Of a stretch of DNA of 64,000 nucleotides, positions 42,001 to 48,000 are shown piece by piece. The DNA is taken from sequence record NZ_CP106960.1, one strand, 5' to 3'. The stretch comes from a plasmid. Made by a program: the position numbers. Every line of letters starts with the position of its first letter. The stretch's first letter is position 1.

Positions 42001-45000
42001 AAGCACTTGAAATCACCAAATATAAAGGGGCTTTCCCTTACATGAACTACCTCGATGAGGTCGGTGCCTACTACACCGAGCGGATCGCGGTACAGGCCAC
42101 CCAGGTGCGTTCCCTGGACTTTTCTATCATCATGATGAGCCAGGACCAAGAGCGTATTGAAAGCCAGACCTCGGCCACCAATGTTGCCACCCTGATGCAG
42201 AACGCCGGAACCAAAGTCGCCGGTAAAATCGTCAGTGACGACAAGACGGCAAAAACAATCAGTAATGCCGCCGGTCAGGAAGCCAGGGCTAACATGGTGA
42301 GTCTGCAGCGTCAGGACGGCCTTATAGGAACCTCCTGGATCGATGGCAATCAGATCAACATTCAGATGGAGAACAAAATCAACGTTCAGGATCTGATTAC
42401 GCTGCAGCCCGGGGAGAACTACACTGTGTTTCAGGGCGACCCGGTACCGGGTGCCTCCTTCTATATCGAGCCAGAGGACAAAACCTGCGGTGAGCCGCTG
42501 ATTATTAACCGCTACATCACCATCAACCCTCCGGGACTGAAACAGCTGCGAAAACTGGTACCGCGTACAGCACAGCGCCGCCTGCCGACACCGGAGAACG
42601 TGAGCAAGATTATTGGGGTACTGACAGCCAAACCGTCCCGTCGCAAAAAGAAGTCAGGAGGAGAGCCGTGGAAAGTGATCGACACCTTCCAGCAGCGGCT
42701 GGCCAACCGCCAGGAAGCACACAACCTGATGACGGAATATGACATGGACCATAGCGGGCGAGAAAAAAGTCTGTGGGAGGAAGCACTGGAAGTTATTAGG
42801 AGCACAACCATGGCAGAACGTACCATTCGATACATTACGCTTAACCGCCCGGAACCAGAGCCTTCCGAGCCAGGTGACGAAGAAAACTCTCAGCCTCAAG
42901 AGGTCATTCTGAAAAATCTTACTCTCCCGGCTCCTGTTATCCGCCCGGCCCGGACAGGTAACGAACCACCTCAACAAATCTCCCCCCACATACCGCTCAG
43001 GCCAGAAATGGAGTGGCCTGAATGATATTTAGAGTATGATTGTTAAGTGTATAAAGGCCGCGAAAGCGGCCTTTTTTGTCTGTGATTTGTTCTAAATAGA
43101 ACGTCAAAACGGCAGGCTTTGACGTGATTTCACGCAAGACGTTAATCCGCTTGCGGCCACATTTTAAGTGCAGCATTCCCTAGTAACGCACCACGTGCGA
43201 GAATTTGTTGCTCATCCCATCGGTCTATAGCGGTCAGAGGCACATTTAAACGCAGGCTGGTATGGGCAAGAAAAGCATCACGTTTTTTTAGAAAGTCTGA
43301 GTGTTGGAGGGAACGATTCACGCTGAGGTTAAGTAACGTCAGATTTCCCAAAGTTGCAATTACTTGCTGCCGTTTCCACACCAGTTCCTGAGCAGGCGTC
43401 AGCTCCGCACCTGCAAGAACTATCTGAGTAACTGCTGAAGCTTCTGTAATCGTAACAGATTGTCCGTTTTCGAGAGGCCAGTGGGAGAACCACTGCTGAG
43501 GCATGAGGTGATCGATATCGAGACTGGAAAGTTTAGGGACATCCGGTTCCTCTGTTTTAACCTGACGGCGGAGTTCCCCTTCAAGCTCTGTGAGCATCAT
43601 ACGCATCTTCGGCGTATCGAGCCTGCCGGGATAAAGCTGGGCGGTAGTACAGGCATTAAGGAATTCTGAGTCAGTCGGCCATCGAGAAGCCTCGCCATTC
43701 AGATTCTTTAGACTGTAGCGTAACTCAACACTGGAAACTTCAGTTTTAGCCAGGTGCCGTAAGACATTCATGAAAACGTTATTGTAGTTCTTGGGTGTAA
43801 GACCACATACGGCTCTTCGCACCACATATGAGACTAGATCATTAAACATGATTGTCTTTTCAGTGTCGGAGATGTCAGTGACCGAAATCAGAAGTGCGAG
43901 AGGGTGAATAGTCGTCACGTCATAGGCTGCAATACGACGGCCAAAGCGTGCGATAGGAGACGTACCACTATCACCGATCAGTTCTTTATATTGATGGGCA
44001 TAGCGATTGAGAAGTGCGACCTGCTGATCGGCCCGGTGCGCAGGCATATCCTTAGTGACGTAGTCCCGGAACTCGTTGTAAAGACGTGATAAATCCACTT
44101 CACTACGTTTTTCAGCTTGTAGCGTGGCGTGAATTAACCATTCCAGTCGGGGTTTATAAATTCGGCCACGTCGTTGATTTTCCGTCCAGTAGGGATCTTC
44201 AAATGATTTCCAGTCATTCTCATACAACATCCCAGCATCAATACCGTCACGCTCAGCGCGCATAAAGATGTAATTGCGAATGAGATCCGTCGCATGAAGT
44301 TCTGCCCCCCGACCATTTAACGTCTCAAAAATGATTTGAGCATCATCCTCTGCCTCTAAGGTTATGCTGATCATTTTTAGGTCAGTCAGTACTGCGTTAA
44401 TCAAAGCCTCTGCATTTGAGGCTAAAGAGTGCTCTTCTGCATTGATGAACTGAATAAAAGCATCACTAAAGAACCATAACGCTTCCAGTGAGGGTGGGTG
44501 ATTGAAGTGCTTACGCAGGGTGCCATGTTGAGTGAAGCTATCCGGATAGACATCGCGCAGATCATCTGCGGCGTCAACGTTGAGACTTTTAATAAAATCT
44601 TTTTGATCCCGGAATGTTGGCCAAAGTTTAAAACGTTCGACCTCCTCATTACGCATTGTTTCTTCGTTTGTGTTGCGTAAACAAGGCAATACGATCTTCT
44701 CCAGTCCGGAAAGGCCCGTTGCCCGAAGTGCAAGTCGGATGGAAGCAAGAATATACTGAAGTGTAGTCAGTCGCTGTTGACCATCAATGATGTGTAAAGT
44801 ATCAACCCCCAACAAGCTATCTCTGGATTGAGGTTCAAGCACGACGGCCCCAAGAAAATGAGGCGTTGGTTTTGTACCTGATAATCTGCTTTGCGCCTTA
44901 TCGAAAATATCTTCTAATAGTGCGGACCACTGGTCTCTTTGTGTCCATACATAGGCTCGTTGATAGAAGGGAACACAATATTGTCGGCGATCCTGGAATA

Positions 45001-48000
45001 TCTGATTAACTGTAAGCGGCTCTGATTTCATGGGGTTCCTTTAATAATACTAAGTGATTTGAGAGCCTGAGAATCGGAGTCACCATCTTCAGGCAACCAG
45101 TTCCTTTCAACCCGGTCCTAACGAGGAGACGGTGGCTTCCAAGTATTCTGGTATGCAACATTATTATCTAGGGTGTGTATGCCCTGATTGACCATTTCAT
45201 CAAAGCGGCGCTCGCTCTCAACACGAAGCTGGTCTACGTCAGGACGGGAGATCTGATATTCACCCTCATCGCGATGATTGACGTTGTGCCATGCCACCAT
45301 TTTCGCAAATGCTGCATTGAACTGGTCATTGTTCCCTTCTGGTTCCATCGCAACGGTCGGGGACCGGCTGAAAAGAACCGGTGCAACTTTTACCATGTCA
45401 TGCTTAAGCACATCGTAATCCCCGTTGTTCTGGAAAATAACCCGATCGCCATAGTCAGTACAGATGTGTCGTCCCGTTTCCGGGTCCCTGAACTGAACAC
45501 GCCCGTTTTTCTTCAGCGACGCCCGCAGGCCAGGAACGCCGGAATAAACAGGCGTACCACCAGGCTCACAAATCACCACACACCGGTTATCCGTTGTGGC
45601 TTTCACAGCATTGCTGCGGCGATCCCGGTAATCCCATCCTCTCAGCTGCGATATCGCAGCCTTGTCACCTTTCAGCGCTTCAACTTCCACCCACTGCCGG
45701 TAAGACGGCGGATACCATTTCCCCTGCCCGATAAGTTCCAGACGTTCCGCTTTCACACTCTCTTTCAGCGCAATGAGTGCCTGCATGCGCTGCAGCTCCG
45801 CAATGTGATAATGCAGCTTCCGCACGAGCGGATCGCGTTGCTGCGCGCGGATACGTGCCTTACGCAGCCTGCACTCGTCATGTATCGCCTGCCAGCGTTC
45901 CCGGTTGCGTAAGTCCGGACGCTGCCAGTTCGCGCGCCAGGCTGAATAACGGGCCTTCAGATCGTCGCGCGCAGCAGCGCGTGCTTCCCGGCGCTGGCGA
46001 CGCAGTTCAGGGTCACGTTTCATGCCCGGGATATCGCGGTCGCTGACGGCAAGCTCAGGGTTATAACGGCTCACCGGCGCAACGCGTTCAAAGATATCTG
46101 ACGGCACACGAACAAACGCACCGGCATGCGGCTCTGCACGAGCAAGCGTCAGATCCGGATGGACATGGCTTGCTTTAACCGGCGTCTGGTCGTGGTTATA
46201 AGCATCCATCACCATCAGGCCCTGTTGCTCACGCATCAGCAGTAATCCCTGACGCGCCAGCAGTTCATGACCACGCTCCCAGGTGAATTCCCCGCTGCTG
46301 ATTAGCGCCTCTAAATCCTGACGGCAGTGTGACACCGCATAGCCCCACAGGCTTTCTTTGTCGGAGAAAATCTCACGCTTAAGCGCGCCCTGCGGACCCG
46401 AACCGGTGCGCAGTTTTGCCCATTCCCGATCGCTGACCGGGCGGGCTTCCAGTCCACCGCCGGCAAAACGTTCCGCCGGAGGTACCTGCCGGAAGATATC
46501 GTGAGGAACAGGCTGCCACCCTCCTTCATAGCTGTTCATGACTGCTTTCGTCAGCGCCGGCCAGACGCGTTCAGCGCGTACTGGCGTGCGCGTCTGATCG
46601 TAACCGTCACAGATAACCAGGCGGTCATGCTGTTCTTTCAGGTACAGACCGGAATGTGCCAGAAGTGCATGAACCGCCTGCATGGTGCGTTGCGCCGGGT
46701 TCTGATCGAGTGCGATAAGTGGCGCGCGCAGACGGGAGACAGCGTACTCATTCAGCGTCTCTTTTTCGGACATGCGTTCAGGACGGGACGGCATAGTAAC
46801 GGTATCCGGATCGTAGCGACCCACATCTGGTACCTGCGTGAAAATGTCCTGTGCGGGCGGCGTGAACTCGCCAAGTTTGCGGATAAGTTTTTCCGTGTTC
46901 CACGAATGACCAAACGCCGAAAGCGTCACGCCCGGACGTTCGCGATCCCAGCCGTCCTTCACTTTCAGCTCGCCGTTATCACTGGCGATAAACAGCCCTG
47001 CTTGCGCAAAACGCTGATGCAGTGAAGGCCAGTCTGTCACCGGTGCTTCGCGAAGACCCGCGACAGCGGTATCGGCAATGTACTCTTTCAGGCTCGGCTT
47101 GCGGCCGTGCTGCCAGGCGCTCTGACGGTCACGTTCGACTGACGTGCGGCGCACAATACGGTTATCCGGCGCAATGACATAGCAGCCATTGTCCGGTGAA
47201 AAGCCATGTTTAAGCTCCAGCTCGCGGCAGGCTTTGCTCAGTTTTTCCTGACTGTATGGCAGTCGGTTCAGGTAGCCGGTTTGAGGGTGAACCCGGTTTA
47301 CGGCAACGTGAACATGCAGGTTATCGGTATCGGTGTGAACAGCCGATACGAACTGGTGATCGCTCAGTCCGAGGCGGGAAAGTGAGTGGCGAACGGAGTC
47401 ATAAATCTGTTCCGGGCGCGGGCTTTCGTGTGACTGCCAGCTAAGAATGTAGTGGAACACCGGGTCACTTTTGTTATGGGCGAACTTCGCTTTGCGTGCC
47501 GCGAACTCCATCTCTTCAGCTGCACTTTCAATGGATGTGCAGTTGTGAAAACAGGTCACACCATAAAAATTCACCCACTCTCCGCCGTCCGGCATCACAT
47601 CCACCAGGGAGATAAATGACTCATCGCGCAGCTTTGTTGCGTAGTCAACAAGGCGGGAAAACCGGCTGCTGTGTGGCATGTCCGCTTTCGTACCGGATGC
47701 CCTGACGGCTTCCATCAGATCATCATCCTGCGGTTCATCACGCACGGAAACGTACGACACCAGGTCCCCGAAGGAGGACTTGCCGTCTTTTCGTTTCTTC
47801 GGAATGACCGGGATCATGATGCGCTGTTCTCTCCGCGTTAATCGTTATTCATCAGCTGCTTTCTGAGCGTGTTGGCCAGCTCAGTTATTGCCACAAGGAC
47901 CGTGGAATACTCCTTATCCCCGACCCGTTTCCCTTCAACAAAATGATGCTTCTGCAGTCGCCCCAGCCTCAGCAACTCGGTCAGAAAGCTGTCATCAATG

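Follow-up and report, generated by a model that had tools for sequence, protein, structure and literature searches.

A stand-alone GmrSD-family gene, probably encoding a defence nuclease, as accessory cargo of an IncI-type conjugative plasmid

The locus and its cargo slot

We analysed a window of 64,000 nucleotides from the plasmid record NZ_CP106960.1, which belongs to a conjugative IncI-type plasmid (MOBP/MPF-I) of Leclercia/Enterobacteriaceae. The features of the locus are summarized in Table 1. An exact-sequence look-up showed that the 629-aa protein encoded by the gmrSD-family gene is identical to WP_231070075.1/WJT05530.1 from a Leclercia adecarboxylata plasmid, which is publicly labelled merely "DUF262 domain-containing protein"; NCBIfam has no model for it. 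As the preliminary description stated, the gene lies downstream of nikB on the same strand, with a gap of exactly 86 bp to the nikB stop at 45118, and is convergent with the trbC operon (116 bp from stop to stop). Its lower GC content was likewise borne out: the gene has 0.467, trbC 0.547, nikB 0.566 and the window as a whole 0.563. The GC3 value of 0.435, compared with 0.60–0.66, indicates that the gene is foreign. The gene is under strong purifying selection (dN/dS 0.05–0.11 against homologs).

Table 1. Features of the locus, its motifs and the leading region.
Feature	Position	Strand	Basis or remark
trbA-trbB-trbC convergent backbone operon	38223..43025	+	Pfam DotM_C, thioredoxin-like, TraG-D_C; annotation of relatives
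trbC	40728..43025	+	End of the convergent operon
Backbone trbC terminator hairpin, AAAGGCCGCGAAAGCGGCCTTT + T-run	43053..43077		Scan; left edge of cargo site
Cargo cassette, 2040 bp	43078..45117		Fills the trbC-nikB slot; bounded by the trbC terminator on the left and by the stop of nikB on the right
Cassette 3' tail	43078..43141	-	Scan and RNA fold; common to the Ewingella copy
Terminator-like hairpin of gmrSD-family gene	43125..43101	-	Within the 3' tail
gmrSD-family gene	43142..45031	-	ORF list and translation; 629 aa; ATG start
W..R..L..W	43157-43219	-	DUF1524-domain motif
C-terminal DUF1524 His-Me finger (HNH-like) nuclease domain (predicted)	43181..43681	-	Pfam, aa 451-617
LGNLTLLNLSVNR	43313-43351	-	DUF1524-domain motif
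LGNLTLLNLSVN	aa 561-572		DUF1524-domain motif, invariant in subfamily alignment
DIDHLMPQ	43496-43519	-	DUF1524-domain motif; IDHLMPQ, aa 506-512
N-terminal DUF262/ParB-like NTPase domain (predicted)	44264..45010	-	Pfam, aa 8-256
FETLNGRG	44306-44329	-	DUF262-domain motif; FETLN, aa 235-239
IIDGQQRLTT	44762-44791	-	DUF262-domain motif, aa 81-90; DGQQR, aa 83-87
VPFYQRAYVW	44945-44974	-	DUF262-domain motif; YQR, aa 23-25
nikB-to-gene spacer/5' leader, 86 nt	45032..45117	-	Sequence and terminator scan
Shine-Dalgarno AAGGA	45037-45041	-	5 nt upstream of ATG
Promoter-like TTCTCA-18-TATTAT	45073..45044	-	Sequence of spacer
nikB relaxase	45118..47817	-	Pfam Relaxase and TraI_middle
nikA	47838..48173	-	NikA-like; with nikB the upstream co-oriented operon, 45118..48173
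N6_Mtase-like ORF	52035..52865		Leading region; 276-aa HsdM-like fragment
ArdA	59915..60739		Leading region

The boundaries of the cargo cassette were set by comparison with pE61_003, in which the slot is empty (72 bp), and with p707804-1FII, whose backbone is 98% identical and whose slot holds a different cargo; the trbC terminator hairpin is kept in both plasmids. The slot is also nearly empty in classical IncI1 plasmids (span of approximately 4750 bp versus 6811 bp), and presence of the gene downstream of nikB is thus not conserved among IncI-type plasmids. Other occupants of the slot are unrelated proteins, and nikB-adjacent cargo in other plasmids always has the same orientation as nikB. 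At least 21 contigs, all from samples independent of one another, carry the exact 629-aa protein, every time in the trbC-nikB slot. Neither IS elements nor inverted repeats nor an integrase turned up at the cassette. These comparisons agree with the earlier view of the gene as accessory cargo of this slot and mark the trbC-nikB junction as a variable cargo site of IncI-type backbones.

The scan found no terminator in the 86-nt spacer, and folding gave no stable RNA structure there (z=+0.98, like shuffles), whereas two hairpins were predicted for 43040-43150(-) (z=-4.3). The spacer shares 74 of its 86 nt (to 45105) with a chromosomal copy in Ewingella at 88% identity, and the conserved leader (approximately 60–75 nt, with the promoter-like hexamers) has a core that is kept in homologs from unrelated contexts. 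The gene is a self-contained module, because it has its own leader and hairpin and because chromosomal copies have no upstream nikB. The gene may also be appended to the relaxase operon, as the preliminary description suggested: the terminator-free gap and the co-oriented cargo elsewhere make read-through from nikB plausible, so that co-transcription with nikAB is possible as judged from the sequence.

The leading region holds ardA and an MTase-like gene, as described earlier, together with PsiA/PsiB. A sequence scan of the MTase-like ORF detected motif I and no NPP[FYW] (NPPY) catalytic motif, and the product is probably not an active methyltransferase. The suggested interplay of the nuclease with an "orphan MTase" is therefore weak.

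Domain architecture and structural relatives

Both Pfam domains scored far higher than their gathering cutoffs. GmrSD_N/PF03235 (DUF262) matched aa 8-256 over the full profile (1-199) with E=8.5e-35 and 121 bits (cutoff 33.2), and GmrSD_C/PF07510 (DUF1524) matched aa 451-617 with E=8.7e-20 and 71.5 bits (cutoff 23). The PADLOC model mREase_IV matched 629/629 positions (1133 bits); the HEC-06 profiles also matched (5e-54, 182 bits, aa 3-522), and SspE models were among the matches. Machnicka et al. (2015; PMC4619093) defined QR, (I/V)DGQQR and FxxxN as family motifs, with (I/L/V)(E/D)H(I/L/V)xPQ and L(G/A)NLxLLxxxN toward the C-terminus. The 629-aa protein carries 6/6 Machnicka motifs, each invariant across the subfamily. 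In an alignment of 30 subfamily sequences (identity down to 53%), the DUF262 motifs were invariant, as were D505, H508, P511, N563, N568, N572 and R573 of the DUF1524 domain; the catalytic (E/D)-H-N-N residues are therefore present and not lost. These results confirm the DUF262 + DUF1524 architecture that the preliminary description had matched to GmrSD, BrxU and SspE, and show that the catalytic motifs are intact in this one polypeptide.

The profile search against the PDB matched solely DUF262-DUF1524 defence nucleases (DndI, 1.1e-15; SspE, 5e-6). The AF2 model of the protein had a pLDDT of 82.8, and its least confident stretches (56–66) were aa 490-520 and 560-580, near the His-Me motif. 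Foldseek with this model returned DndI, SspE and BrxU alone as significant PDB matches: DndI (9jfl) with E=6.8e-11, a TM of approximately 0.5 and 14% identity, and BrxU with a probability of 0.96, E of 1.1e-2 and 12% identity. Global TM values were 0.3–0.5, which is low, as expected with flexible multi-domain proteins, and all relatives that have been solved or characterised share just 11–15% identity with the protein.

Distribution and probable function

A total of 508 species-representative genomes contain the subfamily, whose members have approximately 630 aa and are >50% identical across phyla. Among complete E. coli genomes the share is 5.6%, with e14-like prophages as the carriers. Nearly all homologs are chromosomal, with conjugation genes absent nearby. 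They lie in defence islands and P4-like islands and, within e14-like prophages, at the cargo end; their neighbours include Lamassu, PARIS-like, Type I/III R-M, RT, SoFic and MADS genes. No partner gene was conserved across 88 homolog loci, and the gene is stand-alone, as claimed earlier; these contexts and the PADLOC call also back its description as a defence gene. In the literature searched, we found no experimentally tested member of the subfamily.

We consider it probable that the gene encodes a stand-alone, single-polypeptide defence nuclease of the GmrSD family (type IV-like), carried as accessory cargo of the IncI-type plasmid, and most likely the protein protects its host against phages. 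From homology to BrxU, Eco94GmrSD, HEC-06, SspE and DndI, we infer nuclease and NTPase activity, phage defence and the likely target. The DUF262 domain would bind and hydrolyse NTP via the YQR/DGQQR pocket, which would alter the conformation or oligomeric state and thereby license the C-terminal DUF1524 domain. The His-Me finger of this domain (D507-H508...N563...N572) would then nick or cut invading DNA. The likeliest targets would be phage genomes with hypermodified bases; host and plasmid DNA, normally Dam/Dcm-methylated in enterobacterial hosts, would be spared. The gene would have arrived in the slot as a self-contained 2-kb module of leader, ORF and hairpin, and its own leader could serve for expression, with read-through from nikAB as a probable second source. 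In support of a defence role, BrxU (PMC8565348) and HEC-06 (10.1101/2024.01.29.577857) lose defence when the same DGQQR and (D/E)H residues are mutated, and two GmrSD-family genes of conjugative plasmids give phage resistance, namely pEFER BrxU and pTEF2 EF_B0059 (the latter in PMC11322646). The 629-aa protein may target modified DNA, although its nearest solved relative is the phosphorothioate (PT)-sensing DndI and not GmrSD/BrxU. Dependence on modification is not guaranteed, because DndI reads host phosphorothioate and not base modifications of phages, and because EF_B0059 shows toxicity even in E. coli that lacks methylation (PMC11322646).

Two further readings, which we regard jointly as unlikely, concern specificity and site. 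The highly conserved clade of approximately 630 aa, nearer to DndI than to GmrSD or BrxU and yet stand-alone, may read something in foreign DNA other than the cytosine modifications known for the family: a different hypermodification, a feature of the backbone or structure, or, in the manner of PFLU4242, plasmid DNA on entry. It would then serve as a plasmid-carried weapon against competing mobile elements. Alternatively, the trbC-nikB site may be a dedicated IncI-type cargo hotspot in which read-through from the relaxase operon couples defence to transfer.

It is quite unlikely that the nuclease acts mainly on incoming or co-resident foreign plasmids, excluding competitors of the IncI-type plasmid, and not mainly on phages. 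The location on a conjugative plasmid, adjoining the relaxase, fits such a role, as does the chromosomal PFLU4242, which shares the DUF262/DUF1524 architecture and causes an SOS response and a fitness cost solely with pQBR megaplasmids, being non-toxic alone (PMC8544851). However, PFLU4242 is not a subfamily ortholog when compared by length alone (approximately 1.6 kb versus 1.89 kb), the homologs sit in typical anti-phage islands or are prophage morons, and the tested BrxU, GmrSD, HEC-06, EF_B0059 and TgvAB are all anti-phage.

We regard as very unlikely an effector of the SspE/DndI type, in which the DUF262 P-x-Y-Q patch senses host PT, the nuclease attacks PT-free invaders and host dnd/ssp genes are needed. 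DndI is the nearest solved relative by both profile and fold, with SspE second, and its PT-sensing residues P23/Y25/Q26 (PMC11662687) correspond to P21/Y23/Q24 of the P21-F-Y23-Q24 patch, which is invariant in the subfamily; nevertheless, PxYQR is generic to DUF262 and identity to DndI is just 14%. No Dnd/Ssp family recurred among the PADLOC hits to the 109 nearest neighbours of homologs, and no dnd or ssp gene was present among the window ORFs examined (tra/pil/trb/nik conjugation and leading-region genes). In many genera the gene travels alone, on prophages and islands as well as on the plasmid, and neither mode suits such a stand-alone mobile gene, because without PT DndI is toxic and SspE is inert (PMC11662687).

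A conjugation accessory factor, processing DNA in transfer as a member of the nikAB operon, hardly deserves credence: the co-orientation with nikB across a short gap with no intervening terminator or stable structure, and the like orientation of nikB-adjacent cargo elsewhere, are outweighed by empty slots in plasmids with the same trb and nik genes, unrelated proteins in other slots, nearly exclusively chromosomal homologs and the foreign GC3.

The gene is genuine, but as accessory defence genes go it is fairly ordinary, and no surprise to a specialist because the PADLOC label is already type IV. It adds a single-gene GmrSD-type nuclease to the phage-defence genes known to be spread by conjugative plasmids of Enterobacteriaceae. 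Such plasmids, found in human-gut and clinical/environmental Leclercia/Enterobacter lineages, could alter the phage susceptibility of their hosts, which is relevant to phage therapy and plasmid ecology. The subfamily is widespread, so that one phage-panel result would annotate thousands of genes.

Comparison with known systems

DndI and SspE (PDB 9JFL, 6JIV/7DRS), PT-sensing DUF262-DUF1524 nickases, are the best structural and profile matches. They have the same domain order and a conserved P-x-Y-Q patch, though one generic to DUF262, and D83 of DGQQR is shared by DndI and the 629-aa protein; identity is, however, 13–15%, and both work with dnd/ssp modification genes, none of which is linked to the approximately 630-aa subfamily. 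HEC-06 (Payne et al. 2024 preprint, 10.1101/2024.01.29.577857) is likewise a single-gene GmrSD-like defence, validated against coliphages, in which DGQQR and (E)H are needed. Its match to the 629-aa protein is partial and much weaker than that of mREase_IV (182 versus 1133 bits), and it was found embedded in Hma systems. Its phage spectrum is not transferable.

BrxU (pEFER, PDB 7P9K; PMC8565348) is also a plasmid-borne GmrSD-family protein, and the DGQQR and DH..N..N that it needs are kept here. Unlike BrxU, the 629-aa protein has YQR and no RLFDS nucleotide-binding motif, and its gene stands alone between nikB and trbC, whereas a BREX locus surrounds that of BrxU. The GmrSD system (PMC4619093) differs in that no pairwise similarity is detectable outside the motifs, the present subfamily forming a separate clade. 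The specificity of GmrSD for glucosyl-hmC/hmC DNA, and the family's NTP-stimulated cleavage confined to modified (hmC, glc-hmC or 5mC) DNA, may or may not extend to the 629-aa protein. The two nevertheless share a single chain with an N-terminal DUF262, a helical linker and a C-terminal DUF1524, the motifs QR, (I/V)DGQQR, FxxxN, (D/E)HxxPQ, LGNLxLLxxxN and W..R..L..W, and a stand-alone gene that occurs both within defence islands and on mobile elements.

EF_B0059 of the Enterococcus pheromone plasmid pTEF2 (PMC11322646), compared here by description and not by sequence, comes from a Gram-positive plasmid and another subfamily, with EHxxE instead of DHxxP. It is similarly GmrSD-like and carried on a conjugative plasmid, where this sole gene gives phage resistance, and its co-transcription with the upstream gene provides a precedent for the operon idea.

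Cargo slot between trbC and nikB

The ORF of the putative nuclease (the nuclease gene) was confirmed by translation at the position first claimed for it, with an AAGGA ribosome-binding site 5 nt 5' of the ATG. The neighbours and the 86-bp distance from nikB to the ATG were also as first described, and the convergent stop codons of trbC and the nuclease gene are 116 bp apart. The GC content of the gene was indeed lower (0.467 vs 0.547 for trbC, 0.566 for nikB, and 0.563 for the whole window), and its GC3 was 0.435 vs 0.60–0.66 in the comparison. The backbone is that of an IncI-type conjugative plasmid (MOBP relaxase, MPF-I) with 98.3% identity to the Leclercia adecarboxylata plasmid p707804-1FII over 24 kb and 92.9% identity to the related plasmid pE61_003. 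The coordinates are summarized in the following table, which includes a large ORF in the transfer region.

Positions of the nuclease gene, its slot, and other features of the window
Feature	Position	Strand	Description
Large ORF	19892..23509	+	1205 aa; DUF5710 and LPD7 (large polyvalent protein-associated) domains; inside transfer region
trbA, trbB, trbC	38223..43025	+	Converge on nuclease gene
Slot interval	43026..45117		trbC stop to nikB stop
trbC terminator hairpin	43053..43074
Cassette	~43078..45117		2040 bp; cargo filling the slot
Nuclease gene	43142..45031	-	629 aa; ATG start
Compared leader	45026..45105
nikB	45118..47817	-	Pfam Relaxase and TraI_middle; same strand as nuclease gene
Divergent nikB 3' end	45118..45220
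nikA	47838..48173	-	Same strand as nuclease gene
MTase-like ORF	52035..52865	-	276 aa; leading region

The cassette was delimited by aligning the window with pE61_003 and p707804-1FII. It starts where the T-run of the trbC terminator stops, runs as far as the nikB stop codon, and stands in place of approximately 22 bp. In pE61_003, merely 72 bp lie between nikB and trbC, including the shared terminator hairpin, and p707804-1FII carries two unrelated hypothetical genes in the same site. The slot is essentially empty in classical IncI1 plasmids, with a trbC-to-nikB span of approximately 4750 bp vs 6811 bp for the same query interval in the window. Its cargo is a TolA-C-terminal-domain protein in IncK2/Z plasmids, a DUF2971 protein (PADLOC candidate PDC-S31) or a 190-aa unknown in IncI-gamma/K1 plasmids, and up to ~5 kb with 7–8 genes, including a YafO-family toxin and an nSTAND3 fragment, in Citrobacter and Enterobacter plasmids. 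With the site empty or otherwise filled in relatives, the nuclease gene is an accessory cargo. The cargo gene adjoining nikB was always co-oriented with nikB in the IncI-type plasmids compared. The interval between the two stop codons varied from empty to ~5 kb across these plasmids (loci L001 and L101–L107).

Insertion mediated by a transposon, integron, or IS was rejected, as the junctions showed neither an IS nor inverted repeats, a target duplication, or an integrase. The nikB 3' end was also considered as part of a swapped cassette, the p707804-1FII alignment having hinted at a breakpoint at ~45220; it was placed outside the cassette because the empty-slot pE61_003 conserves the last nikB codons, which puts the edge of the cassette at the stop codon. 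Over its C-terminal ~35 codons, nikB diverges strongly between otherwise 98%-identical plasmids, with the last 8 conserved, and this tail is a fast-evolving relaxase end adjoining the cargo site.

The identical 629-aa protein is already public (WP_231070075.1/WJT05530.1, listed as MULTISPECIES Enterobacteriaceae). At least 21 contigs encode it; they come from independent samples, among them human-gut metagenomes and one MAG, and the gene lies in the nikB|trbC slot in every case shown. No plasmid in PLSDB (2024) carried the gene at ≥85% DNA identity; the best protein match was 75%, on a 1.3-Mb record labelled plasmid.

Protein family, motifs, and fold

Both domains named in the preliminary description were matched well over the Pfam gathering thresholds: GmrSD_N (DUF262, PF03235) at aa 8–256 over the full-length profile (E = 8.5e-35) and GmrSD_C (DUF1524, PF07510) at aa 451–617 (E = 8.7e-20). 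The top PADLOC match was mREase_IV (PDLC03655; 1133 bits, 629/629 positions), followed by "Orf5", HEC-06 (5e-54), and SspE models, and no NCBIfam model matched the protein. In a large protein collection, the nuclease fell into a tight subfamily of ~630 aa that is >50% identical from Enterobacteriaceae to Acidobacteria and Desulfobulbaceae, with relatives in 508 species-representative genomes. This clade is uncharacterised.

Motif conservation was scored in an alignment of 30 sequences with identity down to 53%. The N-terminal motifs VPFYQRxYVW, HIIDGQQ, and ETxNGRGAxL and the C-terminal residues D505..H508..P511 and GN563L..LLN568L..N572-R573 were invariant, and they match one-to-one the GmrSD family motifs defined by Machnicka et al. 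2015 (PMC4619093). The catalytic and family motifs are intact, with no loss of D505, H508, N563, or N572. The dN/dS values against four homologs were 0.05–0.11.

The AF2 model of the nuclease (mean pLDDT 82.8, pTM 0.78) was compared with the PDB using Foldseek, and only DndI and SspE were significant (E ≤ 0.001). DndI (9jfl) was the top match (E = 6.8e-11, TM ~0.5) at 14% identity, followed by SspE (E = 2e-9) and BrxU (7p9k; E = 1.1e-2, probability 0.96). Searching PDB sequences by profile gave a consistent result (DndI, 1.1e-15; SspE, 5e-6) and also returned an unnamed DUF262 protein (20yv, 7e-10).

Genomic contexts and expression

The stand-alone status of the gene was upheld when 557 neighbour ORFs from 88 homolog loci were clustered: no family occurred in more than 5 loci, and a conserved partner gene was rejected on this count. 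Recurrent neighbours were Type I and Type III R-M subunits and integrases. PADLOC matches among the 109 nearest neighbours were REase_III (5), Type I S/M (3), MADS (3), and SoFic, with no recurring Dnd or Ssp family. The 78–81% identical homologs were found in P4-like integrase/AlpA islands beside Lamassu and a PARIS-like pair, adjoining a Type I R-M system, or adjoining a reverse transcriptase. Of 5426 complete E. coli genomes, 304 carry a member of the subfamily, a homolog ~72% identical and always on the chromosome. In the two genomes inspected (L108, 8943–10832; L109, 6943–8832), it lies at the end of an e14-like prophage as a cargo gene, with a tail-fibre invertase remnant alongside; e14 carries McrA at this kind of site. 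One of the two has an icd gene fragment at the prophage junction. A phage origin of the gene was rejected, given the absence of a close homolog in 50,697 phage records (best match, 27% identity over 58% of the protein).

A chromosomal copy in Ewingella americana is 92% identical, with 88% DNA identity to window 43002..45105. The shared stretch comprises the ORF, 74 nt of upstream leader, and the downstream hairpin, and extends through the terminator hairpin of the backbone into the final ~24 nt of trbC, stop codon included; IS3-family fragments come next (L008, 9890–11025, compared with window 43002–43141). Since the chromosome retains the trbC end and its terminator hairpin, the copy looks derived from an IncI-type plasmid, which suggests capture from a trbC|nikB slot. 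On its other side, the Ewingella copy adjoins the gene of a SoFic defence protein.

The 78–81% homologs from unrelated islands retain the leader core (CGnTTCTnAnGCTC...TAAAGGnAnCCC-ATG), and this conservation argues for a promoter belonging to the gene itself. The leaders of the window and Ewingella share an 11-nt deletion relative to these homologs (upstream regions of L014, L017, and L021), which makes the -10-like TATTAT abut the Shine-Dalgarno sequence and might weaken the promoter or translation start and increase dependence on read-through. The scan of the 86-nt gap after nikB found no terminator, and the gap folds no better than shuffled sequence (z = +0.98), so that read-through from nikAB is plausible; independent expression is equally plausible. 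The region 3' of the gene's stop is strongly structured (z = -4.3). With leader, ORF, and hairpin of its own, the cassette is a self-contained module.

Proposed mechanism and comparison with known systems

BrxU binds nucleotide in its DGQQR pocket, and this binding drives a cycle between dimer and monomer without which DNA carrying 5mC, hmC, or glc-hmC is not cleaved; BrxU also needs its DH..N..N residues (PMC8565348). Phage defence by HEC-06 depends on its DGQQR and EH residues (preprint 10.1101/2024.01.29.577857), and in DndI and SspE, NTP hydrolysis governs the open/closed transition controlling the C-terminal nickase (PMC11662687). Because of this behaviour of its homologs, the nuclease would be an NTP-gated His-Me enzyme attacking invading DNA. 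Enterobacteriaceae are as a rule Dam+ and Dcm+, and the plasmid circulates in several of them; the enzyme therefore presumably tolerates m6A and Dcm 5mC, which would suggest that it targets either phage DNA with hypermodified bases or another non-self feature.

A phosphorothioate-dependent effector, as in DndI and SspE, is disfavoured, the gene being without any dnd/ssp linkage. An anti-plasmid weapon is suggested by PFLU4242, a plasmid-cost gene of P. fluorescens (PMC8544851), but this family member differs in size (~1.6 kb vs 1.89 kb), and orthology was rejected on size. Sister plasmids whose slot is empty contradict a part in conjugation itself.

Interplay of the proposed NTP-gated nuclease with an orphan methyltransferase, raised in the preliminary description, found little support. 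ArdA is present in the leading region as claimed, together with PsiA, PsiB, DUF932, and a ParB-HTH protein. The short MTase-like ORF matches the N6_Mtase profile (311 positions) just at positions 24–118; a motif-I-like (SAM-binding) DPACGSAG is present, and the catalytic NPP[FYW] was searched for and is absent, for which reason an active methyltransferase acting with the nuclease was rejected. As the ORF is probably inactive as a methyltransferase, there is little reason to expect it to oppose or assist a modification-dependent nuclease. The ORF resembles a truncated HsdM-like protein and is possibly an anti-restriction decoy instead of a methyltransferase.

GmrSD-family genes conferring phage resistance are already known from conjugative plasmids, namely BrxU on pEFER (PMC8565348) and EF_B0059 on pTEF2, which is co-transcribed with its upstream gene (PMC11322646), and PADLOC, a standard tool, already labels the present protein type IV. 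Specific to the window are the clade itself, which is uncharacterised, the exact position of the cargo in an IncI-type backbone, and the evidence for a chromosomal copy derived from such a plasmid slot.
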